A stretch of DNA of 64,000 nt from Candidatus Sungiibacteriota bacterium (GCA_016186145.1 JACPMF010000006.1:1906-65905); one strand, 5' to 3'. Counted from the stretch's first letter, positions 30,346 through 47,384 are shown. Numbers and translations are program-made. Notes: generated by a model from the sequence alone, not told the origin.

Positions 30346-30445
30346 GCTTGCTATCGCTCTATCAACGAATTACGAATCTTTTACGAATCTACGAATATAA
30401 TGAATAAAATTCGTATATTCGCGACCGATTCGTAATTCGATGATG
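30346..30445 (-). promoter_or_regulatory. family-1 palindromic TTCGTAA/TTACGAA array element, copy 1, oriented toward recR
   Basis: ACGAAT x3 then ATTCGT x3. Read on the minus strand it ends ..gtaattcgttgatagagcgatagcaagcATG (recR start). Confidence 0.75.
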
Positions 30446-30448
30446 CTT

Positions 30449-31813
30449 TTAGAACGCCTCGTCGTCAAACCCTTTTGCGAGCGAGTAGAAACTGACCGTG
30501 TTTTCATTAAAACCGAGTTCCACCACGCCGGTCGGTCCGTTTCGATGTTTGGCGATATGAATCTCCGCCACATTTTTTCGATCAGTGTTCTTTTTTACTT
30601 TGTCTTCGCGATAGATAAAAAGCACAACGTCGCTGTCCTGTTCTATGGTGCCGGAATCGCGCAAATCAGAAAGTTTCGGTATCGCATCATGCCGCATTTC
30701 AACTGCCCGAGAAAGCTGGGAAAGTGCGAGTACCGGAATGTTCAGTTCTTTTGCAAGACCCTTAAGCGACCGAGAAATCTCTGAAACTTCTTGAACCCGG
30801 CTTTCGGAATTATCCGACCCCTTAATCAGTTGCAGGTAGTCAACGACTACAAGGCCAAGGCCTTTATGTTCTGCTTGCAACCTGCGGGCCATTGCCCGTA
30901 TTTGCATAACGCTTGGGGAAGCAACATCGTCAACAAATATCGGGGCCTGTGAAAGCGAATCCATTGCGCTTTGGATTTTAACAAGGTCATCGTCGGAAAG
31001 ATTGCCGGTTCGCAACCGCCATAAATCCACCTCTGCTTCGGCTGCGATCAGCCGGTCTACCACCTGATCTTTCGACATTTCAAGAGAGAAAAAACCAACC
31101 GGCATTTTTTCGTTGATTGCAACGCTTCTGACGATATCAAGCGCGAGGGCGGTTTTCCCCAAACTTGGCCGTGCAGCAAGAACCACAAGATCTGATTTCT
31201 GCAAACCGGAAAGTTTGCCATCAATGTCTAAAAAACCTGTTGCCACGCCACGGATTTTCCGTTCCCCCGAATGCGACATTTCGATCCGCTGCCATGCTTC
31301 CTCCAACGCCTCTTTAACATGGAAAAAATTCTGCTGGAGCGAGTAATTCGAAACCCCGAAGATCTTTTGTTCCGCTTCGTCCAATAATTTTTCGATATCC
31401 TGTTTTTCGTCATACGCGAGTTCGGAAATAGTCGAGGCCGCCGCGATAAGATCCCGGTGGACTTTTTTTCGGTTCACGGTTTTCGCATAATGACTGGCAT
31501 TGGAAGCTGTGGGCACGAAATTTACCAGCGTCGTGAGGTATGTCATGCCGCCGATTGGGTCAAGCTCCTTTCGGTCTTTAAGGCGGTTTTTGACGCTCAC
31601 AATGTCTATCGGCTCGCGTTTTTCAATAAGATCGAGCATTGCCTGAAAAATCTGCTGGTGCGCCGGCTTGTAAAAATCAGCCGGGCGGATAAGGTCCGCA
31701 ACCCGGAATATCGCGTCTTTATCGAGCATAAGCGAACCAAGCACCGACATTTCGGCATCAATGCTTTGCGGAGGCATGCGAGCACCACCGATTTTTTTTG
31801 ATTCGTTTGGCAT
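30449..31813 (-). CDS. dnaB: replicative DNA helicase
   Basis: N-terminal domain PPQSIDAEMSVLGS. RecA-like GxxxxGKT LGKTALALDI and FSLEMS motif. Confidence 0.9.
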   Translation of the reverse strand: MPNESKKIGGARMPPQSIDAEMSVLGSLMLDKDAIFRVADLIRPADFYKPAHQQIFQAMLDLIEKREPIDIVSVKNRLKDRKELDPIGGMTYLTTLVNFVPTASNASHYAKTVNRKKVHRDLIAAASTISELAYDEKQDIEKLLDEAEQKIFGVSNYSLQQNFFHVKEALEEAWQRIEMSHSGERKIRGVATGFLDIDGKLSGLQKSDLVVLAARPSLGKTALALDIVRSVAINEKMPVGFFSLEMSKDQVVDRLIAAEAEVDLWRLRTGNLSDDDLVKIQSAMDSLSQAPIFVDDVASPSVMQIRAMARRLQAEHKGLGLVVVDYLQLIKGSDNSESRVQEVSEISRSLKGLAKELNIPVLALSQLSRAVEMRHDAIPKLSDLRDSGTIEQDSDVVLFIYREDKVKKNTDRKNVAEIHIAKHRNGPTGVVELGFNENTVSFYSLAKGFDDEAF

Positions 31814-31989
31814 AGTAAGCGGCGGGGGAATATAAGCTCGAAAATAGAATGGGGATTATGAAGACCCCGTTATCATACATTTTATGAAAATCGAGGTCGA
31901 CTTGACAAGAGGAAAAAGTGGTGATAACGTGTTAGTATTCTTTCACAACTTTTTGTGTTCACTCCAACTTTAACAAACCAGGAGAAACA

Positions 31990-32598
31990 ATGCCGAAAGG
32001 CCGTAAAACACGAGAGATGACAGAGACACGGAAAGACGCGATTGAGGCAGAAATCGCAAAAGGCATAACAAGCGTCAGAGAGATTGCACGAGTTCTTCAT
32101 GGACATCCGGGGTTTGATGCTGAAACATTCGAAGGCACTTCCGAGGGTATCCGTAGATACTTCAAAAAACGGAAGCTTTCGGCATCGCAACAGCCACGAA
32201 CCCACGCCTCTATGATAACGGCCATTGCTGCTTCTGCAGCAACTTCGGCAAGCTCAATTCAAACATTTCTCGAAAAATACCAAATCCGTCTGCCTGCCGG
32301 ACAGATTAGCGAATTTAACCGTTTTATTACCGCATTGACGGCCGTTGCCCGTCCGTTAGAGGAACGAGCCCTGCGGGTACCGATAATGGAAGAGAGGATT
32401 CGTGAATTGGAAGCATCTGTCCGTGATTTGAAATCGAATTTGCCGACAGTCATTTTGGAGGAGGAAAACCGCCGCCTTCGCGGTGTTATCGAAAAACAGG
32501 AAACAGTAATCGAAACCCTGAAAAGAACCAAGGGCTATCGAGGTGGGCGCATATTAACCCCGGAAAGCCACCTTGTGGTGAGTGCGGGGAGAGATTAA
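31990..32598 (+). CDS. hypothetical protein with a coiled-coil C-terminus
   Basis: SD aggag 8 nt upstream. 202 aa. Confidence 0.5.
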   Translation: MPKGRKTREMTETRKDAIEAEIAKGITSVREIARVLHGHPGFDAETFEGTSEGIRRYFKKRKLSASQQPRTHASMITAIAASAATSASSIQTFLEKYQIRLPAGQISEFNRFITALTAVARPLEERALRVPIMEERIRELEASVRDLKSNLPTVILEEENRRLRGVIEKQETVIETLKRTKGYRGGRILTPESHLVVSAGRD

Positions 32599-32694
32599 TA
32601 ACTAAGAAATACGATGTGGATAAGACTCCTTCAGGCCGTAGCAATACGGCCTTTCATTTTGTTACGGGGAAGGTTCTTGTTATACTATCAAGGT

Positions 32695-33834
32695 ATGTCC
32701 TTGCGGTGGAATATTTTTTCTTCATCCCAAAAAACGGTCAAGCATAGACTCTTTATTGATGTTGGATCGAGCGCTATCCGTTCTCTCCTTGTAGAATCAG
32801 GCCCCAAAGGACACCTGGGGATCAAAAAGCGAGTTCATTATCTTCCGGTGATGGCGGAGAGAAGCAGGTTTTTAAAAAAAGTTAGCGGGCAATTCCATGA
32901 AATCATCTTCCGCTACATAAAAAGTTTAGGTTCCATTCCTGAAAAGATCGTGATCAGCGCCTCTCCACCGCTTGCCCCGGTTGCCGTTGAAGTCATAAAA
33001 AAGGAGCGGCATGACAAAAATAAGCCCGTCAGCGTAAAGGAAATAGAAGGCCTTCTTGCGGAAAAAATAACCCGTACGCCAAGCGCTGCATGGCACCCTC
33101 CGCAGTTAACCCGTCTTACCGTAGATGGCTATGATATTTCTTTGGAGGATACGGAAAACATCACCGGTTCTGTTATAGAACTTTCCGCGGCCTATCCCAC
33201 CTTTGAACCGGATTTTATCGAAGCGTTTTCTGCTTTGAATAAAACATGGGGAGGGTTGACGCTGGAAATCCATTCAACCCCGATTACGGTGGCTATGGCG
33301 ACAATAAAAAAACTTGCTGAGCGAAATTTTGCTATTATAAAGATTGGCGGAACCGCAACGACTGTCATTGCGGTCGCCTCAGGCACTATCTTATGGGTTG
33401 AATCGTTTCCTTTCGGCGGAGACGACGTAACCAGGGAGCTGGTGAATCAATTAAAAATAGAAATTGGTGAGGCCGAGGATATAAAGCGGCGTTTCGGCAA
33501 ATTCGTGCTGCCTCAAGCCCTTTCCGAGAAGGCAGAAGAGATTTTTAAGCGCCATGCGGAAAAACTTGCGGGGACGGTCGTTTCTCCGTTTCTAAAACGG
33601 CAAAATGCTTTTCCTCCCACCGTTTTCCTTTATGGGGGCGGGGCTAAAGATTCAGCGGTTCAAAAAACCTTGTCGGATCCGCATTGGTTTGAAAATACTA
33701 CTTTTGCGGAAAAATTGCGTGTTGAGGTTTTAGCCGGCGAGCGGTTTACTGACGGAGTACTGTTTAACTCGCCGCTCCAAGGACCGGACTATGTTGAACT
33801 TGCGGCCTCGGTTTTTAAGACACTCAACACTTAA
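32695..33834 (+). CDS. actin-fold ATPase of the FtsA/PilM family
   Basis: IDVGSSAIRSLLV phosphate-1-like at the N-terminus and VFLYGGGAKDS near the C-terminus. Start chosen at the internal ATG. Confidence 0.45.
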   Translation: MSLRWNIFSSSQKTVKHRLFIDVGSSAIRSLLVESGPKGHLGIKKRVHYLPVMAERSRFLKKVSGQFHEIIFRYIKSLGSIPEKIVISASPPLAPVAVEVIKKERHDKNKPVSVKEIEGLLAEKITRTPSAAWHPPQLTRLTVDGYDISLEDTENITGSVIELSAAYPTFEPDFIEAFSALNKTWGGLTLEIHSTPITVAMATIKKLAERNFAIIKIGGTATTVIAVASGTILWVESFPFGGDDVTRELVNQLKIEIGEAEDIKRRFGKFVLPQALSEKAEEIFKRHAEKLAGTVVSPFLKRQNAFPPTVFLYGGGAKDSAVQKTLSDPHWFENTTFAEKLRVEVLAGERFTDGVLFNSPLQGPDYVELAASVFKTLNT

Positions 33835-33870
33835 AAAGACAACAACCATGGCGCGACAACGCATTATAAG

Positions 33871-35316
33871 TTGTCCGTTATAAGTTGTTGGCAATTAATG
33901 ATAAAAAATATGGCTGATTTCTTAAGAAAGATAGCCAAAGAAAGGGAGGAGAAAAGAGGCGGTAAAATCGTTCAAGACATCCTACCCCCGAAAAGCGGTC
34001 TGACGGCTAGAAAAAAGCCGCCCCTGCCCGCGATACAAGAAAAGGCCTCAAAAGAACCGGTGAAACCGAAAATCGAACAAAAGATTTCGCTTCCTTCGGT
34101 ACATTTCTGGAAACCCGCAGCAAGGCGCTTTAATCCCGCCCTTCTTTTGACCCGGCTGCTTTCTTCACGCCGCGCGCAAATAGGATCTGCCGCCGGTATT
34201 CTCATCCTTTTTACTATAATTTTCAGCATCGTTTTTGCATCAACTAAAATAACCATACGCCCAATTGCTGCCGACCTTTCGCTTTCGCCGCTTTCTATAA
34301 CCGCGGATCCGGGTACTAATACTGTTGACCTGGGGGCAAAAAAAATTCCAGCGCTCAAAATTGCGGTAGAAGATACCTATACCGCAACCCGCCAGTCTTC
34401 GGGAAAAAAATATGTTGAGGAACGCGCGACCGGAACTATTGCCATATTCAACCGTTTCGATTCTAACCCTCAAAATCTAGTCCGCACAACACGTTTTGTC
34501 GATTCTAACGGAAAAGTATTCCGTTTGGTAAATTCCGTTACGGTTCCGGGGGCTAAAATACAAGGAGGAAAAATAGTTCCGAGTTCGGTAGATGCTCAAG
34601 TTGTGGCCGACGGCCCCGGCCAAGATTACAATATACCGCCATCACGCTTTACGATTCCGGGTTTCCAAGGTTCTCCCAAATTTGAGGGGTTTTATGGCGA
34701 ATCCCGTTCTGCCATGAAGAATGGTTTTCGTGGTGAAGCTCGCGTGGTAACCGCCGAAGATATTAAAGCGGGGCAGGAGGAAGCAACCCGCCGGCTTTTC
34801 GAGGAATTAAGAAAAAAGCTTGATTCGAAAATTCCTCCGGGCAATGAATTTCTTTCCCTTGACGGTTCCCGGGATATCCGAATTGCAAAGGTAGTAAGCC
34901 CAAAAGCGGGGGAACGGAAAGAAGAATTTGCCATAGAAGCAAGCGGGATGGCCGAAGCGGTTGTGTTTCGCAAAACAGACCTTTTCGCATTTCTCGACTC
35001 CGCCCTGCTTTCCCCGGAACGGCCCTCAACAATATTGGAGGATACGAGCCAAATTGAATTTTCAGGCATCCAATTTGATATCGGAAAGGATATATTGGAA
35101 TTCACCGTTAAAGGATCTGCCACCGCAGTCCGTGTTATTCCGGTTGTAGAAATGCAAGCATTACTTGCCGGAAAAACCACTACGCAAGCCGAAGCATTTC
35201 TTCGCGGACGGCCGGAAATTGGCGGTTTTTCAATAAAAAATTCTCCATTCTGGCGATGGAAGACACCACGCCATCCTGAGGCAATTGAGGTGAAAGTGGA
35301 GATCCCGGCTGTCTGA
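33871..35316 (+). CDS. membrane-anchored hypothetical protein
   Basis: 481 aa with a single TM helix (ILILFTIIFSIVFA). Directly downstream of the FtsA/PilM-like gene. Confidence 0.5.
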   Translation: MSVISCWQLMIKNMADFLRKIAKEREEKRGGKIVQDILPPKSGLTARKKPPLPAIQEKASKEPVKPKIEQKISLPSVHFWKPAARRFNPALLLTRLLSSRRAQIGSAAGILILFTIIFSIVFASTKITIRPIAADLSLSPLSITADPGTNTVDLGAKKIPALKIAVEDTYTATRQSSGKKYVEERATGTIAIFNRFDSNPQNLVRTTRFVDSNGKVFRLVNSVTVPGAKIQGGKIVPSSVDAQVVADGPGQDYNIPPSRFTIPGFQGSPKFEGFYGESRSAMKNGFRGEARVVTAEDIKAGQEEATRRLFEELRKKLDSKIPPGNEFLSLDGSRDIRIAKVVSPKAGERKEEFAIEASGMAEAVVFRKTDLFAFLDSALLSPERPSTILEDTSQIEFSGIQFDIGKDILEFTVKGSATAVRVIPVVEMQALLAGKTTTQAEAFLRGRPEIGGFSIKNSPFWRWKTPRHPEAIEVKVEIPAV

Positions 35317-35411
35317 TGCCATGCTAAGAATGCGATTTCGGGGGGTACGAATTAAAAGATTGACACCATAACGGCAATCTGCTAAACTCGTGTGGTGCCG
35401 TTATTATCACT

Positions 35412-35633
35412 ATGAAGGGCGAAAAACGGGGTATTTTAAAAGAAGGAGTGGTGACAGAAGCGCTCCCTGCTACTCTTTTCCGGGTTAAACTTGACGACGG
35501 CGCTGAAATCATTGCCCACCTTGCGGGAAGACTGCGCCTTCATTACATCCGGGTAATGGCGGGGGATCGCGTTCGGATAGAAATGTCGGAGTACGACGCC
35601 ACGAAGGGAAGAATTGTGCACCGCTTGAAATAA
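35412..35633 (+). CDS. infA: translation initiation factor IF-1
   Basis: 73 aa S1-like protein ([31 protein letters not shown]). Confidence 0.9.
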
Positions 35634-35704
35634 TGTTAAATTTTGAATGCCGGATGCCGAATAGAAATTATTTAGCACCCAGCATTTATAATTTATAATT
35701 TTAT

Positions 35705-35818
35705 TTGAAAGTCCGAGCATCAGTTAAACGCATGTGCGCAAAATGCAAAGTAATACGGCGCAAGCGTCGTGTTTTTGTTATTTGCACAACCCCGAAACAT
35801 AAACAGCGCCAAGGGTAA
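35705..35818 (+). CDS. rpmJ: 50S ribosomal protein L36 (TTG start); absent from the ORF track
   Basis: Translation (M)[36 protein letters not shown]. Confidence 0.85.
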
Positions 35819-35917
35819 TTATCATCGAATTACGAATCAGCCGCGAATTTACGAATTTGATTCATTATTCGTAGATTCGTAAAAGATTCGTAATTCGTTG
35901 ATGAGGCGATAGCGAAC
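35819..35917 (+). promoter_or_regulatory. family-1 element, copy 2, ending at the rpsM ATG
   Basis: tcatcgaattacgaatc...gattcgtaattcgttgATGaggcgatagcgaacATG. Confidence 0.75.
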
Positions 35918-36304
35918 ATGAGAATAGCCGGAACCAATATACCCGACAATAAAAAAATAGAATATGCATTGCCCTATATTTTCGGCGTCGGCTTAAGTTT
36001 GTCGCGAAAGATTCTCGTTGCGGCGCGTGTAAACAAATCCAAGCGCGCAAAAGAGCTTGCCCCTGATGAGGTAAGCCGGCTTCGTGAAATAATCGAAAAA
36101 AATTACAGAATTGAAGGGGAACTACGAAGAGAAATTTTAATAAACGTAAAACGCCTGAAAGACATCGGTACATATCGGGGTAACCGCCATATTCGGGGCC
36201 TTCCGGTCAGAGGACAGCGGACCAAAACGAATTCTCGCACCCGCCGCGGCAATGTGAGAAAAACAATGGGTTCAGGAAGAAAATCGGCAGCAAGTCCGAC
36301 ATAA
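35918..36304 (+). CDS. rpsM: 30S ribosomal protein S13
   Basis: MRIAGTNIPDNKKIEYALPYIFGVG. Confidence 0.9.
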   Translation: MRIAGTNIPDNKKIEYALPYIFGVGLSLSRKILVAARVNKSKRAKELAPDEVSRLREIIEKNYRIEGELRREILINVKRLKDIGTYRGNRHIRGLPVRGQRTKTNSRTRRGNVRKTMGSGRKSAASPT

Positions 36305-36424
36305 TTTTAAAACAATCCTCCTTCGCTAAAGCTATGGAGGACATCTTTCGCTACCACATAACGAGAGGTGTCCCTAATTAGATGGCTTGCCATCCGTAGC
36401 TCCGAGCGATGCGAGAAGCGAAGA

Positions 36425-36886
36425 ATGGGAAAAAAGCGAATCATAACCAAAGGAGATACTGAAGGTGCTGCCTCAAGCAAGGTGGAGGGGGTATCCGGCA
36501 CCAATGACGGCGGGCAGGGAAATCCGCAAGAGCGGCAACATGTTCAATATGGAGCCGCGTATATTCTTGCAACATATAACAATACCTTAATTTCGATTGC
36601 CGACGAGAATGGTAATACCATCGCGTGGTCGTCTGCCGGGGCAATGGGTTTTAAAGGCACTAAAAAAGCAACACCTTATGCGGCTTCGCGTGCCGCGGAG
36701 GCCGTAGCGGAAAAAGCAAAAAAGTGGGGTATAACAGGGGTAACTGTTTTTGTGAAAGGCGTCGGCTCCGGCCGCGAGTCGGCAATCAGATCGCTTGCTA
36801 ACTATGGCCTTGACATAGCAATGATTAAAGATATTACCCCAATCCCGCATAATGGTCCGAGGCCTTCGAAAGTCCGACGAGTATAA
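36425..36886 (+). CDS. rpsK: 30S ribosomal protein S11
   Basis: [43 protein letters not shown]. Internal ATG start chosen. Confidence 0.85.
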
Positions 36887-36896
36887 CGAGGAGGAC

Positions 36897-36994
36897 CCAG
36901 CACATAAATTTACAATTGCCGTCTACTGCATTTCATAATTATTGCATCAGCCCCGCGACTAAAATTAATTGACGGATGTAAATTTATGTGCTGG
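36897..36994 (+). promoter_or_regulatory. perfect 18-bp inverted repeat, 62 bp apart, in the rpsK-rpsD leader
   Basis: ccagcacataaatttaca (36897-36914) and tgtaaatttatgtgctgg (36977-36994) are exact reverse complements. Confidence 0.5.
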
Positions 36995-37062
36995 GTGCTG
37001 AATTTTGTGGCGAAATTTTGTTCACAAAACAAGTTTCGCTCCAAAATTTCGACAAAATTCGC

Positions 37063-37698
37063 ATGCCACTATCTCGACCGAAGGAAAAAATTGAAAGAAG
37101 AATAGGCGAGCGGCTCTTTTTAAAAGGGGAGCGCAGTTTTTCTCAAAAGGCAGGAGTTGCCCGAAGGCCATATCCTCCCGGACAACACGGCAAACGAAAA
37201 ACAGGAAGAGGCGGTTTTTCTGAATTCGGACAACAGCTAAAAGAAAAACAGAAAGTTCGGCACATCTATGGAATCAGCGACAGGGCGCTTAAAAAATATT
37301 TTACTTTGGCACGCAGAAACCGAGCAAAGCCTACCGACGAAACTCTTGCGGAACTTCTGGAGCGGCGTCTTGATAACGTAGTTTTTCGTCTTGGACTGGC
37401 ACTATCACGAAGCATTGGACGCCATATGGTAAGCTACGGGCACATAACGGTTAACGGAAAACGAGCTAAACAGCCGTCATTAACGGTCAAACCGAGTGAT
37501 ATTATTTCAATCGCGGAAAAATCGCGCAATCTCGGTTTTTTCCAAGATCTCGGAGAGCGGATGAAAAAATACTCGCCACCGGCATGGCTGGAGTTTGATC
37601 CGGAAAAATACGAAGGAAAACTCAGGCATACCCCGGCTCTTCAGGACATCTCCGGCCAGCAAAACATGTCATTAGTAGTTGAGTATTATTCGAGATAA
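37063..37698 (+). CDS. rpsD: 30S ribosomal protein S4
   Basis: S4 domain VFRLGLALSRSIGRHMVSYGHITVNGKRAK. Internal ATG start. Confidence 0.85.
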   Translation: MPLSRPKEKIERRIGERLFLKGERSFSQKAGVARRPYPPGQHGKRKTGRGGFSEFGQQLKEKQKVRHIYGISDRALKKYFTLARRNRAKPTDETLAELLERRLDNVVFRLGLALSRSIGRHMVSYGHITVNGKRAKQPSLTVKPSDIISIAEKSRNLGFFQDLGERMKKYSPPAWLEFDPEKYEGKLRHTPALQDISGQQNMSLVVEYYSR

Positions 37699-37699
37699 T

Positions 37700-37790
37700 A
37701 GAAGCGGATCGCTTCGCTTCACGCAGATCACAACGCGGAAAAACGCGGATCCGCATGAATCCGCGTAGCTATCCGCGTTTATCTGCCTTT
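37700..37790 (+). promoter_or_regulatory. family-3 GCGGAT/ATCCGC array element ending before the rpoA ATG
   Basis: atccgcgtagctatccgcgtttatctgcc. Compare 50775-50815. Confidence 0.6.
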
Positions 37791-37794
37791 AAAT

Positions 37795-38769
37795 ATGATT
37801 CCACTTCCCCATCAACCAAAAATTATCCTCGAAGAGGAGGGCAAAGGAGTATATGAAATTGAGGGGCTGTATCCCGGTTACGGCCAAACACTTGGTAATG
37901 CAATACGGAGGGTTTTATTGTCGTCCTTGGACGGATCAGCCATAACGAGCGTAAGGATTGAAGGGGTAAATCATGAATTTACGACCATCCCGAACGTATT
38001 GGAAGACGTGATTGAAGTCACATTAAATTTGAAACAAATCCATTTTCGAATGCATGATGACGGCCCGGTAACCGCAACGCTTCACGTTAAGGGCGAAAAA
38101 AAAGTTACTGCGAAAGACATTCAAACTTCATCACAGCTCGAGATGATGAACCCCGACCAGCACATAGCGACTATCACTGATAAAAAGGGAGAATTAATAA
38201 TGGAGTTTACCGTTGAAAAGGGCCTCGGATATCAATCCGTTGAAACCAGGTCTCGCGAAAAGGTTCCGGTGGGAACAATCGCGTTAGATGCGGCATTCTC
38301 CCCGGTTCGGCTTGTCCATTATGAAGTCGAAAATATGCGCGTTGGCGACCGTACCGACTACAATCGGCTTCGACTGCACATTGAAACGGATGGGTCACTC
38401 GTTCCTCGAGAGGCGTTTCGGCGGGCGGCAAAAATTTTAGCAGATCAGTTCAATGCACTATATGGAGTTTTTGCTGATCAAGAACCAGCTTCCGAAAATC
38501 GTGGGGGCGGAATGGCAGACAGCGCGGAGGAGCAGGAAGGAGAAGACAAAGAAATGTCATATGAGGAAATCGTCGCAAAGAAAAAAATTGACGAGATGGA
38601 GTTTTCCACGCGAGTCCTTAATGCGCTCAGCAATGCGGGAATAAAAACCGCCGGACAACTGGCTAAAAAGAGCGAAAAAAAACTAAAGGAAGTCGAAGGG
38701 CTCGGCGATAAGGGAATTACGGAGGTAAAGAAGGCGCTGGGAAATTTAGGACTGACGCTTAAGCAATAA
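37795..38769 (+). CDS. rpoA: DNA-directed RNA polymerase subunit alpha
   Basis: N-terminal domain TLGNAIRRVLLSSL. C-terminal domain LNALSNAGIKTAGQL. Confidence 0.9.
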   Translation: MIPLPHQPKIILEEEGKGVYEIEGLYPGYGQTLGNAIRRVLLSSLDGSAITSVRIEGVNHEFTTIPNVLEDVIEVTLNLKQIHFRMHDDGPVTATLHVKGEKKVTAKDIQTSSQLEMMNPDQHIATITDKKGELIMEFTVEKGLGYQSVETRSREKVPVGTIALDAAFSPVRLVHYEVENMRVGDRTDYNRLRLHIETDGSLVPREAFRRAAKILADQFNALYGVFADQEPASENRGGGMADSAEEQEGEDKEMSYEEIVAKKKIDEMEFSTRVLNALSNAGIKTAGQLAKKSEKKLKEVEGLGDKGITEVKKALGNLGLTLKQ

Positions 38770-38774
38770 AGAAT

Positions 38775-38873
38775 TCATCATCGAATTACGAATCCAGTAC
38801 GAATGTACGAATTTAATTGATTATTCGTAGATTCGTAAGAGATTCGCTATTCGTTGATGGAACGGCAGCGAAT
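38775..38873 (+). promoter_or_regulatory. family-1 element, copy 3, ending at the rplQ ATG
   Basis: The mini-uORF ATGGAACGGCAGCGAATATGA (MERQRI*) overlaps the rplQ ATG. Confidence 0.75.
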
Positions 38874-39609: not shown

Positions 39610-40191
39610 ATGCCAGTTCAAAAAACAAAAAAGGCGGCAAAGCCAAAAAAGGCGCTGAAGGAAAAAGGCGCCGAACTTGAATTGCCAAAAAAGAAAGCGG
39701 AGAAACTTGAAATCGAGGCGACTCTGATTCCGGAACCGGCAATTGATAAAGAAAAACTGGAGGAAACGGATGAAAATTCCGCCGCCTTTTTATCTCAATC
39801 TGAACGATATTGGGAAGCGGTTGGAAGAAGAAAAACCGCAGTTGCAAGAGCACGCCTTTTTACACGCGGTGAAAAAGGGGTTTGGGTCCACGAAAAGCCG
39901 GTACAAACATATTTTCAGCAAGACCGCTTGGTTTCAATTATCGAAGAGCCGTTGAAGAAAATGAAATCCACCGATCGTTTTCGCGTAACCATAAAAGTTT
40001 CCGGGGGCGGAATGAACGCGCAAGCCGAAGCGGCCCGCCACGCTATTTCCCGCGCTCTCGTAAAATTTAATCCCGACTTCCGAAAACGCTTAAAACGGGC
40101 CGGATTCTTAAAACGAGACCCGCGTATGAAGGAGCGGAAGAAGTTTGGCCTGAAAGGGGCGCGCAAGGCTCCGCAGTGGGCGAAACGATAA
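39610..40191 (+). CDS. rpsI: 30S ribosomal protein S9 with a Lys-rich N-terminal extension
   Basis: YWEAVGRRKTAVARARLF...GGGMNAQAEAARHAISRALV...KFGLKGARKAPQWAKR. Confidence 0.85.
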   Translation: MPVQKTKKAAKPKKALKEKGAELELPKKKAEKLEIEATLIPEPAIDKEKLEETDENSAAFLSQSERYWEAVGRRKTAVARARLFTRGEKGVWVHEKPVQTYFQQDRLVSIIEEPLKKMKSTDRFRVTIKVSGGGMNAQAEAARHAISRALVKFNPDFRKRLKRAGFLKRDPRMKERKKFGLKGARKAPQWAKR

Positions 40192-40236
40192 GCGAACCCG
40201 GCATTAAGTTTCAGAACTGGTTTTATAAAGCAAAAT

Positions 40237-40278
40237 AAGAGGAGTGCGAAAAAAACGCATTCCTCTTATTTTTTTATT
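40237..40278. terminator. bidirectional rho-independent terminator
   Basis: 12-bp stem AAGAGGAGTGCG / CGCATTCCTCTT with an A7 loop. A T-run follows on the plus strand and the A-run gives a T-run on the minus strand. Confidence 0.7.
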
Positions 40279-40291
40279 CGTTTGAGACGGC

Positions 40292-41692
40292 TCAAAAACT
40301 TGAAGAGTAAAGAAAACTGCCGCTTGCGCGCAAAATCCGGTTTGCCGATGCGTCGTAATCAAATACCCCGCCGCCCTGTTCAAAAATAATCGTTGCTGCA
40401 GGACCGCCGCCTCGGTTATCGATATCCACAACGCCGATGAATTTGCCGGCGGAAAAAATGCTATGCGCTTCTTTTTCTCCAAACCATGACGCATTGGCAA
40501 GACGCTCCTCGCCGGGCGAAAGTATCCGCTCGCGCGTTCCTGCTTTTCGAAACGGCGCCTGTTTCTCATCGGCGATCCACAATACTTCAAGAGCTCTCTC
40601 CGACCAAAAAAGAAGTTTTTTCCCGTCTTCAGAAAACTCCGCCCCGATAATGTTGCCCGAAATTGGAATTACTTCCGGCTCTTTACGCCTTCGGACAAAA
40701 AAGCCGCCGGCCGAATCAATTAAAAATGCGTCGCCGTATGAATTCATTTCCATCCGGGTCGGTTCATCGCTTAAGTAAAACCCTTTCCGTCCTAAATTTT
40801 CAACCTCCTCGCCGTTGAAATTCGCTGATGACAAAAATCCTCTCTTCGTTACGAACAATATTTGTTCTCCCGATACGCGAAAAGAGTGAACATCGGAAAA
40901 AAGCGGTTCGGCCGTCCTTTTTGTCCGATTGAACCGCAAAAGGGCGCCGCGATTCGTCAAAATGAAAAACTCGTCAGCAGACCCTCCAAAATCCGCCATG
41001 GTCACCATTCCAATATCCGTTGGCGGACGCAATTGCAATTCCTGGACGCGACCGCCCGCTAAGTTGATGATCGAAAACCGCACCGGCCCCCTCCGCTTTA
41101 CCAAAAGCCGCTGATTCTCCGAATCCCATCGAAAATCTTCGATTCGTTCTACTGCGTCAAAAATTTTACTCTCAAGATTAAAAAGGTATGTGAATGCTGT
41201 TCGTTCCGGCGCATAGATGAGGATCCACGAACTTCCCGGCAAAATTTCAAATTGCTCGATAGTGAGATCTCTGCGCATGAGACTAAGAACCTCATCTTCA
41301 GTAATGGTTTCTGGAATAAGCAAAACGGAGCGAAATTCACTAATTGACTCCGGGGTAACATGAATTACCCGCTGCCAAGGGCGAAAGCCCTCCTTTTCAA
41401 CTCGTACCGAATACAAATCCGGCGTAAGGTTAGTAACCAGGGCCCCGAACGAAATGATTCCGCTGTCTTTTACGGCATTGTTGTTTATAAAAATCCTGAA
41501 GTTATTTTGATTCGCCTTTATAAAAATACCGCCGGTGCGCACCACATGCCCGGTTTTTAAATCGAAATTGTATCCCAACGAGTATAAGACAATAAGAGGC
41601 GTGAGCAACAAGAAGAGCAGCGAGCCAAGATAAAAGATCACCCGCCGTTGGGCCTTTGGAAAAGGATGAGATGGTCTAAAAAATTCCGTCAT
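40292..41692 (-). CDS. membrane-anchored hypothetical protein
   Basis: 466 aa with an N-terminal TM helix (VIFYLGSLLFLLLTPLIVLYSLGY). Confidence 0.55.
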   Translation of the reverse strand: MTEFFRPSHPFPKAQRRVIFYLGSLLFLLLTPLIVLYSLGYNFDLKTGHVVRTGGIFIKANQNNFRIFINNNAVKDSGIISFGALVTNLTPDLYSVRVEKEGFRPWQRVIHVTPESISEFRSVLLIPETITEDEVLSLMRRDLTIEQFEILPGSSWILIYAPERTAFTYLFNLESKIFDAVERIEDFRWDSENQRLLVKRRGPVRFSIINLAGGRVQELQLRPPTDIGMVTMADFGGSADEFFILTNRGALLRFNRTKRTAEPLFSDVHSFRVSGEQILFVTKRGFLSSANFNGEEVENLGRKGFYLSDEPTRMEMNSYGDAFLIDSAGGFFVRRRKEPEVIPISGNIIGAEFSEDGKKLLFWSERALEVLWIADEKQAPFRKAGTRERILSPGEERLANASWFGEKEAHSIFSAGKFIGVVDIDNRGGGPAATIIFEQGGGVFDYDASANRILRASGSFLYSSSF

Positions 41693-41775
41693 ATTCTACT
41701 TTATACATTAAACGAGAAATAGGATGACTTGCAACACCCGGCGTTTACCAGTAATCTAAAAGTGGTTTTCCTGTA

Positions 41776-41880
41776 TTCATCATCGAATTACGAATCAGCT
41801 GCGAATATACGAATTTCCACAACCTGATTATTCGTAAATTCGTAAAAGATTCGTTATTCGCCAATGAAGCGGCAGCGAAT
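41776..41880 (+). promoter_or_regulatory. family-1 element, copy 4, ending at the murA ATG
   Basis: About 95% identical to 47281-47384. Confidence 0.8.
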
Positions 41881-43158
41881 ATGCAAAAATTCATTATTGA
41901 AGGCGGACACCCTTTAGAGGGCGAAGTCATTATCGGCGGATCTAAAAATGCAGCTCTTCCGCTTATTGCGGCATCTCTTTTAACCGAAGAGCCGGTTTTG
42001 CTTGAAAATATTCCCGCCATCAGCGATGTCGCTGCGATGGCAAAAATTGCCGAAGGACTCGGGGCTCACATAGAATTTAATGCGGAGAAGAGCGCTATTC
42101 GCATTACCGCCGCCGCCCTTTCCAACCCCTCTGTTGACGAGGCGTTAACGAGAAAACTTCGCGGATCAGTCCTTTTTTCCGGAGCCCTCGTCGGCAGAAT
42201 GCGAAATGCAATTTTACCATACCCTGGAGGGGATGTTATCGGAGCCCGTCCTCTTGCAACCCACCTCCATGCGCTTGAAGGCCTCGGATGCGTCATATAC
42301 GAGGACGGGAATAATCTGCGGATTGACGGCGCGTCACTTCACGGCGGCGAAATCGTTCTTGAGGAACAAAGCGTAACCGCAACAGAAAATACAATACTGG
42401 CGGCAGTGCTTGTCCCCGGCGAAACGATCATAACGCTTGCCGCGTTCGAACCGCATGTTCAGGAACTGGTTGCCTTTTTAAACAAAATGGGGGCGGATAT
42501 TCAGTGGATTGATTTTTCGCGTCTTATGATTCGCGGCGTTAAACGCCTTAACGGGATAACGCACCGGATTAATCCCGATGAAATCGAGATTTCAAGTTTC
42601 GCCGCGCTGGCCGGAGCAACTCGATCGCGAATCTTTCTTCGAAATGTAGAACCGAAGTATCTTGATGCCATTTTCCTGCAACTAAGAAAAATGGGCGTTT
42701 CTTATACCATTTCGGGTAACGGACCACTGGCAACTCTAGGAATTGAGAAGCCGCCTGCCGTTTATAAAAGCTTTCGAATCCAGTCGGGGTTTTATCCAAA
42801 ACTGGTTACCGACCATATACCGCCATTTGCGGTTCTGGCAACGCAAGCCCACGGAACTTCTCTCATTCACGACTGGATGTACGAAAATCGGCTGCGTTAT
42901 ATTCCCGAATTGCAAAAAATGGGCGCTCATTGTACTATATTAGATCCGCACCGAGCACTCATAACCGGCCCGTCCAGCCTCCGAGGAAGCGAAATTGAAA
43001 CCTACGATATTCGTTCCGGCATGACGCTTGTCATCGCGGGCCTTACCGCAGAGGGCCGTTCAACGATTTCCAATATCGAACATATCGATAGGGGATATGA
43101 AAAAATAGACCAGAGATTACGCGCTCTTGGAGCAAACATTGAAAGAATCAATGAATAA
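41881..43158 (+). CDS. murA: UDP-N-acetylglucosamine 1-carboxyvinyltransferase
   Basis: FIIEGGHPLEGEVIIGGSKNAALPLIAASLL. Confidence 0.9.
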   Translation: MQKFIIEGGHPLEGEVIIGGSKNAALPLIAASLLTEEPVLLENIPAISDVAAMAKIAEGLGAHIEFNAEKSAIRITAAALSNPSVDEALTRKLRGSVLFSGALVGRMRNAILPYPGGDVIGARPLATHLHALEGLGCVIYEDGNNLRIDGASLHGGEIVLEEQSVTATENTILAAVLVPGETIITLAAFEPHVQELVAFLNKMGADIQWIDFSRLMIRGVKRLNGITHRINPDEIEISSFAALAGATRSRIFLRNVEPKYLDAIFLQLRKMGVSYTISGNGPLATLGIEKPPAVYKSFRIQSGFYPKLVTDHIPPFAVLATQAHGTSLIHDWMYENRLRYIPELQKMGAHCTILDPHRALITGPSSLRGSEIETYDIRSGMTLVIAGLTAEGRSTISNIEHIDRGYEKIDQRLRALGANIERINE

Positions 43159-43180
43159 AAATTTGATATAACAAGTAACT

Positions 43181-44188
43181 ATGTTTACAAAAAAACTAGG
43201 CATTGATCTCGGCACAACCAATACTCTTGTTTTTGTCCCAAACAGAGGAGTGGTTATCAACGAACCATCCGTTGTCGCGGTCTCTGTCGATGACAATCGC
43301 GTTCTCGCGGTAGGCAATTCGGCCAAAGAAATGATCGGCCGCACTCCGGAAACCATTGTCGCGTATCGCCCCCTGAAAGACGGCGTTATCGCCGATTACC
43401 GCGTAACCGAAGCCATGCTTCGCTATTTTATCGATAAATCCCTCGGCCGTATGCGTATGTTCCAGCCGGAAGTCATGATTTCTGTTCCCGCTGGAGTTAC
43501 TTCAACCGAGCGAAGAGCCGTTGTTGAGGCCGCCACCAAAGCTGGCGCCAAAGCGGCGTATGTTGTGAAAGAACCCGTGCTTGCGGCAATCGGAGCGGGG
43601 ATTCCCATCAATGAACCGTCAGGCCACATGATTGTCGATATCGGCGGCGGCACAACCGATGTCGCAGTCATCTCTCTTGGCGGCATTGTTGCCTCAACTT
43701 CGGTAAAAGTAGCCGGGAATAAACTCGACCAGGCAATCGCCGACTATATTAAACGAAATTACAATCTTGCAATTGGAGACCGCACCGCCGAAGACATCAA
43801 AATAGCTATTGGCAGCGCCGTTCCTTTAAGCGAAGAACTTTCCATGGAAATTAAAGGGCGTGATTTGATGAGCGGTTTGCCGCGAGTTATCGAAATACGC
43901 TCCCCGGAAATAACAGAAGCGGTCTCGAATGAATTGAGCGAAATAATCCAGGCCATAAAGCAGGTTTTACATCAGACGCCGCCGGAACTTGCTGCGGATA
44001 TTATGGAGCGGGGGATTGTGATGTCGGGAGGCACATCGCTCCTTCGCGGCATTGATGAGCTTGTATTTCAAGAAACCGGCGTTATTGCGCATATCGCTCA
44101 AAATCCCCTTCTTTCGGTGGCAAACGGAACCGGCATCGCGCTTGAACACTTAGACGTATACAAAAGAAGCATTATGACAAAACGGTAG
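43181..44188 (+). CDS. mreB: rod-shape-determining protein MreB
   Basis: GIDLGTTNTLVF, DIGGGTTDVAVISLGG, VMSGGTSLLRG. Confidence 0.9.
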   Translation: MFTKKLGIDLGTTNTLVFVPNRGVVINEPSVVAVSVDDNRVLAVGNSAKEMIGRTPETIVAYRPLKDGVIADYRVTEAMLRYFIDKSLGRMRMFQPEVMISVPAGVTSTERRAVVEAATKAGAKAAYVVKEPVLAAIGAGIPINEPSGHMIVDIGGGTTDVAVISLGGIVASTSVKVAGNKLDQAIADYIKRNYNLAIGDRTAEDIKIAIGSAVPLSEELSMEIKGRDLMSGLPRVIEIRSPEITEAVSNELSEIIQAIKQVLHQTPPELAADIMERGIVMSGGTSLLRGIDELVFQETGVIAHIAQNPLLSVANGTGIALEHLDVYKRSIMTKR

Positions 44189-44598
44189 CTCGGCATCACG
44201 AAATTTTTTTCAGCTCGTTTGAAACAAAATTTCCATGCACTGCACAATGAAAAATTTTTATGAAGCCTTGCTTGCCTTACAAGCCATGAAGAAAAACTTT
44301 ATGTCAAAAAATATGCGATAGCAGAAATTTTGACAATTCGGCAATAAAAGTTTCCGACATACAGCCATTTTTGAAGTAAAATAATTGGCGGACTCGAAAA
44401 TCCGCCAGAAATCGTTGCTATGGACTAGCAATAACGAATCTTTCCACCGAGATATCTGGATGGTATACGGCAAAAAACTCGATCGCAAGTTCCACTTCCT
44501 CATCTGTAATGTCCTCGACCCACACCGGGGTTACCCACGAACCAGGGTTAACCTTTTCTGCTCCGAACAAGTAAACCGCAACCGCTACCACGCCCATG

Positions 44599-45342
44599 CT
44601 ACCGGGTGTCAGTTTGATCTTTGCCACGCAAGTCCTCCTTTACTTTATTTCCATGTTCGTCTAAGCGTTTTATCGCAATTATATAAAGTAGCCAATCCAT
44701 TCCCATACCAACGCTATTGATAAAGAGATGTATTATCCCGGCAAAGACAATACTTCCTGAATTGATTGAGACGATGCCCCACAGAAGAGCGTAGGTTGGC
44801 GCGAAAATAAAGTAGCGGATAAGTGAAGCTTTTTGCATACCAGAATCCAGATGATATGCGCCAAAAAGAATCGCTTGGAGAAAGAGAAAGAAGACACCGA
44901 ACGTACTTCCGAAGTCTTGCCAGACGATTATGAGTACCGCTCGATATAGAATCTCCTCCATGATAACCATGGGTATCATCAGGAAGAAATCACGTCTAAC
45001 ACTACCTTCCGCCTCCCGCAATTGTTCTAGAAACTCCTTTGATTGGTCGGCTGGCAATGCCCAGTAGAAAACCACTTTTCCATGCCCTCGTATGAGATTG
45101 AACACCGAACGACATCCTCCGAAGAAGTGAATAAGATGCAGATCGGTAACTACAACAAGCAGGTTTACTACAAGAACCGTGATAATGCTTGGATTAAGAG
45201 GGGGTAGTTTGAAAAGACCAAGAATGTTGTCCCTGTTTGCGAAACCTTCTAGGAAATGGTTTGCAAGTACAGCCCCGGCTAAGCCAAAGCTTATTCCTTG
45301 TCCAATAGCACCGGCTTTGCGTAGGACTTCATCCTTTTTCAA
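44599..45342 (-). CDS. CPBP-family (CAAX-like) intramembrane metalloprotease
   Basis: EEILYRAVL and FGAYH motifs. Multi-TM. Confidence 0.7.
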   Translation of the reverse strand: MKKDEVLRKAGAIGQGISFGLAGAVLANHFLEGFANRDNILGLFKLPPLNPSIITVLVVNLLVVVTDLHLIHFFGGCRSVFNLIRGHGKVVFYWALPADQSKEFLEQLREAEGSVRRDFFLMIPMVIMEEILYRAVLIIVWQDFGSTFGVFFLFLQAILFGAYHLDSGMQKASLIRYFIFAPTYALLWGIVSINSGSIVFAGIIHLFINSVGMGMDWLLYIIAIKRLDEHGNKVKEDLRGKDQTDTR

Positions 45343-45567
45343 AGATCCCTCCCCTTAGAAGAAGAAATCGCCAACTTTTCAGGAACTTCCAACATCTTGC
45401 CGGCCATTTCCGCCCCTCCCTACAATCGTTTTGGTTTGACCAAAAATACCATAATAAAAGCTATTTGTCAATGATTGTGGTTTTTCCAGTTTTTGCTATA
45501 GTTTTAACATTGTCATTAAATATTTGTATTTAGAGTTTAGAATTTAGGGTTTAGGATTTTCAAAAAT

Positions 45568-45852
45568 ATGGTAGTCCGAATGCGGCATACAAAATCGAAA
45601 CGGAATCGGGTACGCTCACACCATGCGCTCGCCCCGGTAAAATTTGGCGCATGCAGCCACTGCAAAGCGCCGATTTTGGGGCACACTGTTTGTAAAAATT
45701 GCGGCTATTACAAAAACCGGCAAGTGGTTGACGTTCTTGCCCGTCTTGATAAGAAAGAACGAAAAAAGAAAGAAAAAGAATTGCACGAACACGAAGAAGA
45801 AGCTGCCAAAAAAGGAGAAACATTGAACGCAGAAGAGTTATCGCACAAATGA
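45568..45852 (+). CDS. rpmF: 50S ribosomal protein L32 with a K/E-rich C-terminal tail
   Basis: HTKSKRNRVRSHHAL...CSHCKAPILGHTVCKNCGYY. The true start may be the ATG at 45580. Confidence 0.8.
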   Translation: MVVRMRHTKSKRNRVRSHHALAPVKFGACSHCKAPILGHTVCKNCGYYKNRQVVDVLARLDKKERKKKEKELHEHEEEAAKKGETLNAEELSHK

Positions 45853-45925
45853 ATCAGGAATTATGAATTAGGAATTACGGCACACTATAAACCCATAATT
45901 CATAATTCATAATTCATAATTCCAG
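45849..45925 (+). promoter_or_regulatory. family-2 TTCATAA/TTATGAA array element ending at the nusB ATG
   Basis: atgaatcaggaattatgaattagg...cataattcataattcataattcataattccagATG. Confidence 0.7.
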
Positions 45926-46432
45926 ATGGCTTCACGTCACTTAGCTCGCTCCATCGCAATGCAAACACTCTATGAGTGGGATTTTAACAACCAGGACGAA
46001 TCGCGCCTCGAAAGCATCATGAACAAGAATATTGCAGAATTCGGCCCCGGGCTCGAAGATGCGGAATTTATTCAAAAACTTGTCCGAGGCACTATCGATC
46101 ATCTTAAGGAAATTAATGCGATTATCGAGAAGGCGGCGCCGGAGTGGCCGATTACTCAAATTGCAACAGTCGATCGGAGCGTTCTTCGCCTCGGGCTCTA
46201 TGAACTGCTCTTCGGAAACCGTGAAGAGGTTCCGCCAAAAGTGGCAATCAATGAAGCAATTGAGCTCGCAAAATCATTTGGCGGCGAGGCATCCGGGCGA
46301 TTTGTTAATGGCGTACTTGGAACTGTGTACCGCGAAATCGGGGAGCCCGGTAAGGAGCATCCGACTAGACACGAAAAGACGGAAAATGATGGCGAGGTTC
46401 AGGCGGAGGATAAAAAATTAAGTGGCAGTTAA
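45926..46432 (+). CDS. nusB: transcription antitermination factor NusB
   Basis: SRHLARSIAMQTLYEWDF. Confidence 0.85.
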   Translation: MASRHLARSIAMQTLYEWDFNNQDESRLESIMNKNIAEFGPGLEDAEFIQKLVRGTIDHLKEINAIIEKAAPEWPITQIATVDRSVLRLGLYELLFGNREEVPPKVAINEAIELAKSFGGEASGRFVNGVLGTVYREIGEPGKEHPTRHEKTENDGEVQAEDKKLSGS

Positions 46433-46439
46433 TTAATAA

Positions 46440-46585
46440 TCTAATTCTTAAATTCGAATATCGAAATTCGAAACAAATTCTAAATCCCAATTATCCAAAC
46501 TCAAAAGTATTTGATATTTCGGGATTCGAGCGTTGGAATTTGTTTAGAATTTCGGATTTCGTGCTTCGACATTTATGTTTTAACA
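46440..46585 (+). promoter_or_regulatory. TTCGAA hexamer array (direct then inverted) upstream of rnc
   Basis: aattcgaatatcgaaattcgaaac ... gggattcgagcg..gaatttcggatttcgtgcttcgac. Confidence 0.5.
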
Positions 46586-47275
46586 ATGGATATCTCTCAA
46601 CTGGAAGCGCGGCTCGGCGCCCCGTTCCAAAATAAGGACCTCCTCCAACAAGCATTCGTACATCGTTCCTACCTCAACGAAAATCCAAATTTTCGGCTTT
46701 CGCACAATGAACGCTTAGAATACCTGGGCGATGCCGTACTCGAGCTCATAATCTCTGAAGAGCTTTATAAGCGTTTCCCCGATAAGCCGGAGGGGGATCT
46801 TACCAGTTTCCGCGCGGCATTGGTAAATTCCAAAATGCTTGCAGAAGTTGCGGCAGAATTTGATTTTAACGACTTTTTGATGCTTTCCCGCGGTGAAGCG
46901 AAGGACGTCGGACGGGCGCGCCAGTTCATTCTTGCAAACACTCTTGAAGCGGTTATTGGCGCCATCTATCTTGATCGGGGCTATGAGGCGGCGGCTCAAT
47001 TTATTCAGAAAGGCCTTTTTTCCAGGATTGACGAGGTGGTGACAAAAAAGCTCTACCGCGATCCAAAAAGCTTGTTTCAAGAAATTGCCCAAGAACATCA
47101 TGGCGTCACTCCCACTTACGAGGTTCTCAAGGAATGGGGGCCTGATCACAATAAACATTTTATTGTAGGCATATATATTGATAAGGAGCTGGTTGCCGAA
47201 GGCGAAGGCCCCTCAAAACAAGCCGCACAAGAAGAAGCCGCCCGAATGGCGTTAAAGGCACGGGGGTGGCTGTAA
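46586..47275 (+). CDS. rnc: ribonuclease III
   Basis: ERLEYLGDAVLELIISEELY signature and a C-terminal dsRBD. Confidence 0.9.
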   Translation: MDISQLEARLGAPFQNKDLLQQAFVHRSYLNENPNFRLSHNERLEYLGDAVLELIISEELYKRFPDKPEGDLTSFRAALVNSKMLAEVAAEFDFNDFLMLSRGEAKDVGRARQFILANTLEAVIGAIYLDRGYEAAAQFIQKGLFSRIDEVVTKKLYRDPKSLFQEIAQEHHGVTPTYEVLKEWGPDHNKHFIVGIYIDKELVAEGEGPSKQAAQEEAARMALKARGWL

Positions 47276-47280
47276 TATAT

Positions 47281-47384
47281 TCATCATCGAATTACGAATC
47301 AGCTGCGAATATACGAATTTCCACAACCTGATTATTCGTAAATTCGTAAAAGATTCGCTATTCGTTGATGAAGCGATAGCGCAC
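47281..47384 (+). promoter_or_regulatory. family-1 element, copy 5, ending at the smc GTG
   Basis: ...gattcgctattcgttgATGaagcgatagcgcacGTG. Confidence 0.8.

Follow-up and report, generated by a model that had tools for sequence, protein, structure and literature searches.

The stretch of DNA analysed here (64 kb, hereafter the window) comes from a metagenome-assembled genome (MAG) of Candidatus Sungbacteria, a member of the Patescibacteria or candidate phyla radiation (CPR). Within 17 kb it carries five copies of an element of 97–105 nt with palindromic arms, which we call Family-1. Family-1 is one lineage of dispersed, non-coding, imperfect palindromes of about 70–110 nt that are built from reiterated CGAAT/ATTCG units and occur in many Patescibacteria genomes. 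Rather than a promoter or operator, the element is most likely a selfish hairpin that is tolerated. With moderate confidence, we interpret Family-1 as a palindromic CPR repeat that resembles the intervening sequences (IVSs) of rRNA on the one hand, and miniature inverted-repeat transposable elements (MITEs) and repetitive extragenic palindromes (REPs) on the other. Its copies occupy permissive sites of transcripts, at which an extra hairpin can be borne; there it would be co-transcribed and probably cut by RNase III.

An earlier inspection of this DNA without database searches (the sequence-only reading) had reported five copies, each of them running into the start codon of an unrelated gene. 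All five are present where they had been placed, and a shared 18-mer, ATCATCGAATTACGAATC, occurs exactly five times in the window, against a chance expectation of about 2e-6 (in 128 kb). The copies and the positions of the 18-mer are as follows.

Copy 1: 30346..30444, minus strand, between the dnaB stop codon (30449-30451) and the recR ATG (30343-30345); hairpin of -37.1 kcal/mol, z -6.5.
Copy 2: 35819..35917, plus strand, between the rpmJ stop codon (35806-35808) and the rpsM ATG (35918); hairpin of -45.6 kcal/mol, z -7.3.
Copy 3: 38774..38873, plus strand, between the rpoA stop codon (38767-38769) and the rplQ ATG (38874); hairpin of -38.9 kcal/mol, z -6.1.
Copy 4: 41776..41880, plus strand, the start-proximal part of a divergent spacer (41693-41880), followed by the murA ATG (41881); hairpin of -34.7 kcal/mol, z -4.9.
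Copy 5: 47280..47384, plus strand, between the rnc stop codon (47273-47275) and an smc-like GTG (47385); hairpin of -39.2 kcal/mol, z -7.0.
Occurrences of ATCATCGAATTACGAATC: 35821, 38777, 41779 and 47283 on the plus strand; 30427 on the minus strand.

Aligned over about 100 nt, the five copies are 77–92% identical to each other. Copy 1 has the orientation of its minus-strand gene, recR. Four of the five copies take up the whole spacer between two co-directional genes (dnaB>recR, rpmJ>rpsM, rpoA>rplQ and rnc>smc), and in these four the upstream stop codon lies 4–12 nt from the foot of the hairpin; only the murA copy stands in a divergent spacer. Pfam identified the downstream products as RecR, S13, L17, a MurA-type EPSP-synthase family protein and an SMC_N protein, and the upstream products as DnaB, RpoA and RNase III, whose gene (rnc) spans 46511-47275. 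The gene upstream of copy 2, which we take to encode L36 (rpmJ), was assigned by reading its translation and not by Pfam. As had been proposed, the end of the element leads straight into true ATG or GTG start codons: the N-termini are backed by Pfam coverage together with the N-terminal sequences. One independent assembly of the same strain is a Logan contig (L001, from SRR12113424; here and below, L-numbers denote the genome and metagenome loci that were fetched for comparison). It corresponds to positions 35873-37005 of the window and ends inside the 3′ arm of copy 2, a break that was probably caused by the repeat.

RNA folding resulted in a single long, interrupted hairpin for each copy, with energies of -35 to -46 kcal/mol and z-scores of -4.9 to -7.3. 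From the base upwards it consists of a foot, an outer stem of 13 bp, an internal loop of 3–4 nt, an inner stem of 13–14 bp and a loop of 10–16 nt, and the interrupted stem of each copy comprises about 30 bp. Copy 2 illustrates the arrangement, its arms and its apical loop being read from the dot-bracket structure.

35821..35856, plus strand: 5′ arm, with foot ATCATC, outer stem CGAATTACGAATC (35826-35838), a 4-nt internal loop and the inner stem (35843-35856).
35857-35866, plus strand: apical loop.
35867..35904, plus strand: 3′ arm, with the inner stem (35867-35880), internal loop AAAA, outer stem GATTCGTAATTCG (35885-35897) and foot TGATGA.
35905..35917, plus strand: tail, GGCGATAGCGAAC, mostly unpaired, its last base directly before the ATG.

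The element begins with ATCA(A/G/T)CGAAT and ends with the tail, which in the window copies has 13–14 nt, follows the consensus GRRGCGRYAGCGMAY and abuts the ATG or GTG with its final base. The repeat units are not contiguous. Their spacing is 7, 11 and 8 nt, and they are mirrored by the complementary arm. Each copy had been described as three ACGAAT motifs followed by three inverted ATTCGT motifs. The inverted arrays are there, and the count was slightly low: the 5′ half of each copy contains four CGAAT cores, two or three of which read ACGAAT, and the 3′ half contains four ATTCG cores, three or four of which read ATTCGT.

Members of the family were also found inside a 23S rRNA gene. In the metagenome contig L161 two pattern hits (the patterns are described below) fell into a stretch free of open reading frames (ORFs), which Rfam identified as a 23S rRNA gene. 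Local alignments to the bacterial large-subunit (LSU) model revealed three inserts.

Insert 1: 99 nt, at the tip of a 5′-domain helix, model positions 152-178.
Insert 2: 106 nt, near model position 228.
Insert 3: tip of the hairpin formed by Rfam LSU model positions 1206-1227; GGUAGGAGAGC follows this hairpin.

Judging from the sequence context in E. coli 23S, the hairpin at 1206-1227 with the following GGUAGGAGAGC is presumably helix 45. The inserts and the copies of the window can be aligned collinearly from the foot over the outer arm, the internal loop and the inner arm, GATTCGTAATTCGTTGATGG included. Thus the L161 members are stem-loops that replace the terminal loop of a 23S helix, as IVSs do, and the window copies lie outside rRNA. 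No rRNA context was detected in 20 further loci. A group I intron is present in the L161 gene as well, close to the 3′ end (7009-7319).

IVSs are extended stem-loops that stand in place of the tetraloops of helices 9, 25 and 45; they are considered parasitic and are excised by RNase III (PMC4990558, PMC8708148). A survey published in 2024 described many short unclassified insertions at the IVS sites of CPR 23S genes and guessed them to be IVSs (PMC11270868). Neither that survey nor the rest of the literature we searched states a link between these insertions and an intergenic repeat family. A sequence that resides within 23S rRNA helices, as members of Family-1 do, cannot have as its intrinsic function that of a promoter, an operator, a terminator or a specialised leader for translation.

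This bears directly on the suggestion of the sequence-only reading that the element is a shared promoter-operator-leader cassette. At the DNA level, the inverted hexamer arrays would bind a transcription factor and the element would carry a promoter. Inverted arrays of short motifs do look like operator architecture, and the divergent spacer that holds copy 4 must contain the murA promoter somewhere. Against this, four of the five copies and most members of the family lie within operons, straight after a stop codon, and the downstream genes do not form a plausible regulon. A consensus scan for sigma-70-like promoters (-35 and -10 hexamers with 16–18-nt spacing) found none inside copies 2–5 on the plus strand, CPR promoters being uncharacterised. 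Together with the copies in the 23S rRNA gene, these observations make a promoter-operator highly improbable and speak against the cassette. Intrinsic terminators, in which a U tract comes after a GC-rich stem, were likewise not found at copies 2–5, the plus-strand copies that were scanned; each of the five copies has AT-rich stems, after which come the tail and the start codon. The other suggestion that had been made, a MITE donating 5′ untranslated regions, comes close to the evidence, as the element is a dispersed non-coding palindrome whose 3′ tail provides the last bases before many unrelated starts.

The distribution of the family was assessed with two patterns. Pattern 1, consisting of the two outer arms, was run on a species-representative genome collection and matched 90 stretches. 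These came from about 18 Patescibacteria MAGs (Moran-, Uhr-, Falkow-, Staskawicz-, 'Saccharibacteria' and Peribacteria), from about 11 Bacteroidota MAGs, many of them with multiple copies and with feet GGGAA/TTCCC, and from a few other bins whose labels are possibly unreliable. When 100 unique hairpins were sorted by context, 28 were located between the stop codon of one gene and the start codon of the next, co-directional one; 24 had a start codon within 40 nt on one side only, 19 had a stop codon only, and 5 were found between convergent genes. In the Bacteroidota MAGs (L002-L091; JALYQL01, JANOCU01, JBKJMR01 and others) the hairpins combine these feet with the outer arm CGAATTACGAATC and the inner arm CGAAT(A/G)TACGAAT, and half-elements are often located nearby. 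That CGAATTACGAATC hairpins are common to CPR and Bacteroidota could reflect either horizontal transfer or convergence.

Pattern 2, consisting of the 3′ outer arm and the beginning of the tail, matched 88 metagenome stretches. When tailed copies from the window and from the genome loci were added, the total came to 64 unique tailed copies. A start codon that opens a long ORF follows the tail (GATRRNRC) at a distance of 0–10 nt in 39 of the 64, so that the preferential location next to start codons, expected from the five window copies, extends to the family. From their N-termini we take these ORFs to encode S8, S7, S21, L2, L17, L24, L25, L32, GroES, GroEL, ProRS, RsmH and HU, among others. 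The 3′ end of the tail is shortened to varying points across the family, and the spacing between tail and start is therefore tight, not fixed. At the opposite end, 28 copies have a long upstream ORF that ends within 60 nt, and in 17 of these its stop codon is separated from the 5′ foot ATCA(N)CGAAT by 0–5 nt. Start adjacency is a family-wide rule, and it has a mirror rule for the upstream stop codon. The tail points toward the downstream gene far more often than not. Three further copies in another MAG (CAYSWC01) have the same tail leading into an ATG, and in a ribosomal-protein operon of L010 copies occupy the S10|L3 and L23|L2 junctions. We considered replication strand as a cause of orientation and set it aside on a single case, copy 1, which follows its minus-strand gene without a switch in GC skew.

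The bases just before the start codon had raised two further expectations. The absence of a canonical Shine-Dalgarno (SD) sequence holds for the copies themselves; most genes in the window also have none, and we therefore regard the absence as a trait of the genome and not of the element. Strong AGGAGG-type sites accompany few genes in the window, for example at 1210, 31990 and 59582 (minus strand). Across the family, many tails have GGAG or GAGG 6–11 nt before the ATG, and about half read GATAGAGC (AGAG), which does not contain an SD-like core. An SD in the tail was thus rejected as a feature of the element, since about half of the tails have AGAG and the genome of the window rarely uses SD sequences.

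The second expectation concerned short ORFs in the tail. Mini-ORFs do exist in copies 2–5 as described, and in copy 3 the overlap ATGA between the mini-ORF stop and the main start is real. Their conservation, which the sequence-only reading itself called for, did not hold up. Three window copies have closed mini-ORFs, the fourth reads out of frame into murA, and the tail of copy 1 does not contain an ATG. Starts were mapped for 39 copies of the family; an ATG precedes the start within the tail in 21 of them, and a closed mini-ORF results in only 7 of these 21. The peptides vary in length and sequence across the family. The ATG in the tail is part of the foot, in which GATGA pairs with TCATC, and the mini-ORFs are incidental. 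An upstream-ORF control, in which a mini-ORF of 3–6 codons would govern the main ORF via re-initiation or stalling, could draw on the three closed mini-ORFs of the window and on the ATGA overlap. In view of the family-wide counts, the differing peptides and the explanation of the ATG by foot pairing, we consider it barely credible.

Our preferred explanation, a selfish repeat of transcripts, can be put as a series of steps. The element would spread or be copied as selfish DNA. It would be co-transcribed into polycistronic mRNA and fold there into an interrupted double-stranded stem of about 30 bp, which RNase III would cut as in the classical 23S IVSs. The cut would part one cistron from the next, and what remains of the 3′ arm would, together with the tail, serve the downstream gene as a short leader. 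The tail would then be kept beside the start codon because it would form the last untranslated bases of the gene.

Cleavage of the element by RNase III is probable by analogy with IVSs. Several observations weigh against our explanation. Stems are almost invariant, and none of 28 within-family pairs is compensatory. Among isolated mismatches in the stems, G-U is not in excess on the sense strand (30 vs 24, with 78 transversions), and other counts of sense-strand G-U versus A-C were equally unbiased (33 vs 42, 32 vs 29 and 5 vs 4). Without G-U excess and compensatory changes, there is no direct signature of selection on an RNA hairpin. As to mobility, the copies differ by 8–23%, which gives no sign of very recent spread. 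No clear target-site duplication was seen, in that the inspected 5′ and 3′ junctions share no direct repeat, the exact ends not being fixed by a close empty site, and no transposase partner was seen, without a systematic search for one. The one ORF that is repeated between hairpins in L023 resembles, on inspection, a zinc-ribbon-like CxxC protein, and nothing in it points to a transposase. Exact-protein look-ups for a filled and an empty site among close strains returned the same allele or nothing, and the orthologous metagenome pairs are nearly identical strains.

Conservation and orientation belong to the same side of the balance. In two genomes with 78% identity between their rpsU coding sequences, the 60 nt ahead of this gene show 93% identity, and the element stands before rplQ even where L17 identity between the genomes is just 54%. 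A leader that is more conserved than the flanking coding sequence could indicate selection for function rather than neutrality. In addition, a tail that faces the downstream gene beyond chance is not predicted by pure random insertion. Copy 1, which is in line with its minus-strand gene although the GC skew does not switch, and the presence of different families at one junction likewise speak against simple neutrality. These points may keep alive a selected role, either translational coupling via melting of the foot or an obligatory punctuation by RNase III. Gene conversion among copies, combined with a small number of insertion-tolerant positions in compact operons, can explain the same observations.

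In the case of coupling, the foot would mask a purine-rich stretch and the downstream start, and a ribosome terminating 0–12 nt from the 5′ foot would melt the lower stem, resulting in translation at a fixed ratio. The geometry fits, with upstream stop codons so often within 5 nt of the foot and with short distances from foot to start; any element inserted into a spacer of 3–10 nt, on the other hand, gives the same geometry. In CPR lineages that use SD sequences (e.g. L095), the 3′ foot has TAGGAG and the 5′ foot has the CCTA that pairs with it. The GGAG or GAGG of many tails also speaks for coupling, and the GATAGAGC tails speak against it. Coupling would also agree with the conserved leader and with the recurrence of hairpins of different families at the same ribosomal-protein junctions in different genomes. 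However, a co-directional gene is missing upstream of copy 4 and of about 24 further hairpins, the 23S-resident members cannot serve such a function, and the sense strand has no G-U bias. We regard coupling as unlikely.

The other selected role, which we put forward as a tentative possibility and not as a probable one, is a working punctuation of operons. Here the hairpins would be exchangeable cassettes under selection, at which RNase III would cut every long polycistronic transcript and the 23S precursor. Each cut would free the downstream cistron with a short leader lacking an SD, which the ribosome would use directly. Selected punctuation would account for the replacement of one family by another at the same junction, for the tail facing the start and for conservation above that of flanking coding DNA. 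As a corollary, the classical rRNA IVSs may be rRNA-resident copies of genome-wide repeat families.

Further hairpin families are present in the window, and the replacement of one by another is seen in its relatives. A second family (F2), with TGAATTA units, is present at 45853-45925 and 56415-56503 and ends 3–5 nt before the nusB ATG and a murC-like GTG. F2 corresponds to Family-1 (F1) with C:G changed to T:A in every unit; this is the sole compensatory signal that we detected, and it lies between families. A third family (F3), with ATCCGCGT units, forms a full hairpin before rpoA (37721-37794). Its start-proximal half only, as direct repeats without the complementary arm, is found at about 50775-50827, before the gene at 50828. 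A further hairpin is located between infA and rpmJ.

The S13 protein of the window is identical to one from a Candidatus Sungbacteria MAG. We compared four syntenic Sungbacteria loci, in which S13 is 78–91% identical. Their corresponding operon junctions either lack a hairpin or have one of another unit family; a CGAAT hairpin is present at a different junction. For instance, the rpoA|rplQ spacer of L096 is 3 nt long and the murA spacer of L095 is 25 nt long. A scaffold with a run of N (L036) joins two variants of one pilB>pilC junction (3790-4200), and the coding DNA on the flanks differs by about 13%. At the identical position, one variant has an F2-type hairpin (TGAATTA) and the other an F1-type hairpin (CGAATTA). 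The label of this bin, Methanosarcinales, is probably a binning error. As different families, or none, are found at the same junctions, these results indicate that hairpin content turns over quickly and that families replace each other.

Not every array in the window has a complementary arm. In front of rpmF, the tandem array TTTAGAG TTTAGAA TTTAGGG TTTAGGA (TTTAGRR four times, 45528-45560) ends 7 nt before the ATG and lacks such an arm; it is similar to the published TAACTGA-type leader repeats. Arrays of this kind, together with the F3 half before 50828, fit a model in which AUUCGUA units next to the start codon would be bound by a ribosomal or other RNA-binding protein, a role proposed for the TAACTGA repeats of Beggiatoaceae, the 5′ arm acting as an anti-leader. 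The closest published analogue consists of heptamers directly before SD-less starts, including those of ribosomal-protein operons (PMC4679880). Moreover, L038 and L050 retain the 3′ inner arm while the 5′ inner arm is replaced. The units, however, are unrelated between families (CGAAT, TGAAT, ATCCGCGT, AGCTTGT, AACAAC), so that no single binding factor fits, and copies occur in rRNA. Nor is the 3′ arm kept significantly better than the 5′ arm: 48 vs 56 motifs in a symmetric search set (p = 0.38) mean that both arms are kept equally. A heptamer-repeat leader is thus quite improbable.

We next place Family-1, read as a selfish repeat, among known systems. It has in common with the 23S IVSs of Salmonella, Yersinia, Campylobacter, Coxiella and Alphaproteobacteria, and with the CPR insertions, that all are ORF-less stem-loops of about 100 nt with sporadic occurrence, those of rRNA being located at helix tips including helix 45 (PMC4990558, PMC8708148, PMC11270868). 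Unlike 23S IVSs, the window copies lie between protein-coding genes. To our knowledge, IVSs have so far not been assigned to a repeat family that lies between cistrons throughout a genome. REPs are co-transcribed and affect mRNA stability. REPs and bacterial interspersed mosaic elements (BIMEs) of Proteobacteria are, like Family-1, multi-copy extragenic palindromes, often found in operons near stop codons (PMC3733652, PMC2817692, PMC8266576). They differ in that REPs have 20–40 nt and a GTAG or CGTC head and are linked to RAYT transposases, whereas Family-1 has about 100 nt, starts with ATCA(N)CGAAT and consists of reiterated units of 7–8 nt. With MITEs it shares the short length, the absence of coding sequence, the inverted termini and the multiple dispersed copies.

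The Correia elements (NEMIS) of Neisseria and the enterobacterial ERIC elements are non-coding sequences of 100–150 nt with inverted termini, which are located next to genes and co-transcribed. Correia hairpins are substrates of RNase III and can alter the expression of neighbouring genes; they have defined 26-bp terminal repeats and a TA target duplication. In contrast, we have seen neither a target duplication nor an autonomous partner for Family-1, and it exactly bridges a stop and a start codon. The early genes of phage T7 have RNase III hairpins with internal loops and a shared consensus between consecutive cistrons. Family-1 is alike in its intercistronic place; the T7 hairpins are experimentally proven and are not a mobile repeat family, while cleavage of Family-1 is proposed here by inference. 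The TAACTGA heptamers of Beggiatoaceae, Cyanobacteria and Bacteroidetes (PMC4679880) and the heptamers of Nostoc (bioRxiv 10.1101/2022.06.06.494920) are alike in having units of about 7 nt before SD-less starts and in ribosomal-protein operons. Both groups show a patchy distribution across phyla. The heptamers are contiguous direct tandem repeats without a complementary arm, in contrast to Family-1, whose units are interrupted, mirrored into a long hairpin and also present in rRNA. Family-1 thus shares with them the start adjacency and the absence of an SD and not the contiguous direct repeats. TIGR arrays, which are known in CPR (PMC12045711), were rejected, because the unit spacing is 7–11 nt instead of 36 nt and there is a single hairpin per site.

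Searches of the window against Rfam 15 at the gathering threshold returned two tRNAs only, and the E-value mode returned only matches to eukaryotic miRNA hairpins, far below threshold. A phage origin was rejected, as there was no match in a viral contig collection. Sliding-window RNA folding, applied to all 64 kb of the window, gave a result too noisy to be of use. Two other repeated structures were noticed. A perfect palindrome of 48 nt (TCACTCCATCACTCCCTCATTCGC and its complement) lies in a co-directional spacer at 597-644, with a partial copy at about 1030-1060 in the next spacer. Just 3′ of the smc-like ORF, a conserved structured element of about 130 nt (49585-49735) contains the core TTCGGGGAnCCCTCCnTTACGCnGCGGCTCGGGTTTCCC within a long closing stem; two more copies are present in the related Sungbacteria locus L096 (7290-7445 and 11975-12135), where the closing stem differs on both sides. 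It has no match in Rfam and could be an unknown non-coding RNA or another repeat family.

If the interpretation of Family-1 as a selfish repeat of transcripts is correct, it has several consequences for CPR biology. It raises the question of how initiation can be efficient on the mRNAs of genes that are essential and highly expressed, such as those for S13, L17 and GroEL, when a hairpin of -35 to -45 kcal/mol ends 0–14 nt before an SD-less start. In practice, the repeats probably cause breaks in metagenomic assemblies and mislead the prediction of gene starts in CPR genomes. Such hairpins would account for most of the 'extra' DNA between the genes of CPR operons. The unexplained short insertions in CPR rRNA and the abundant intergenic hairpins, described separately so far, would be linked with each other, and rRNA IVSs would have originated as rRNA-resident copies of dispersed palindromic repeats.

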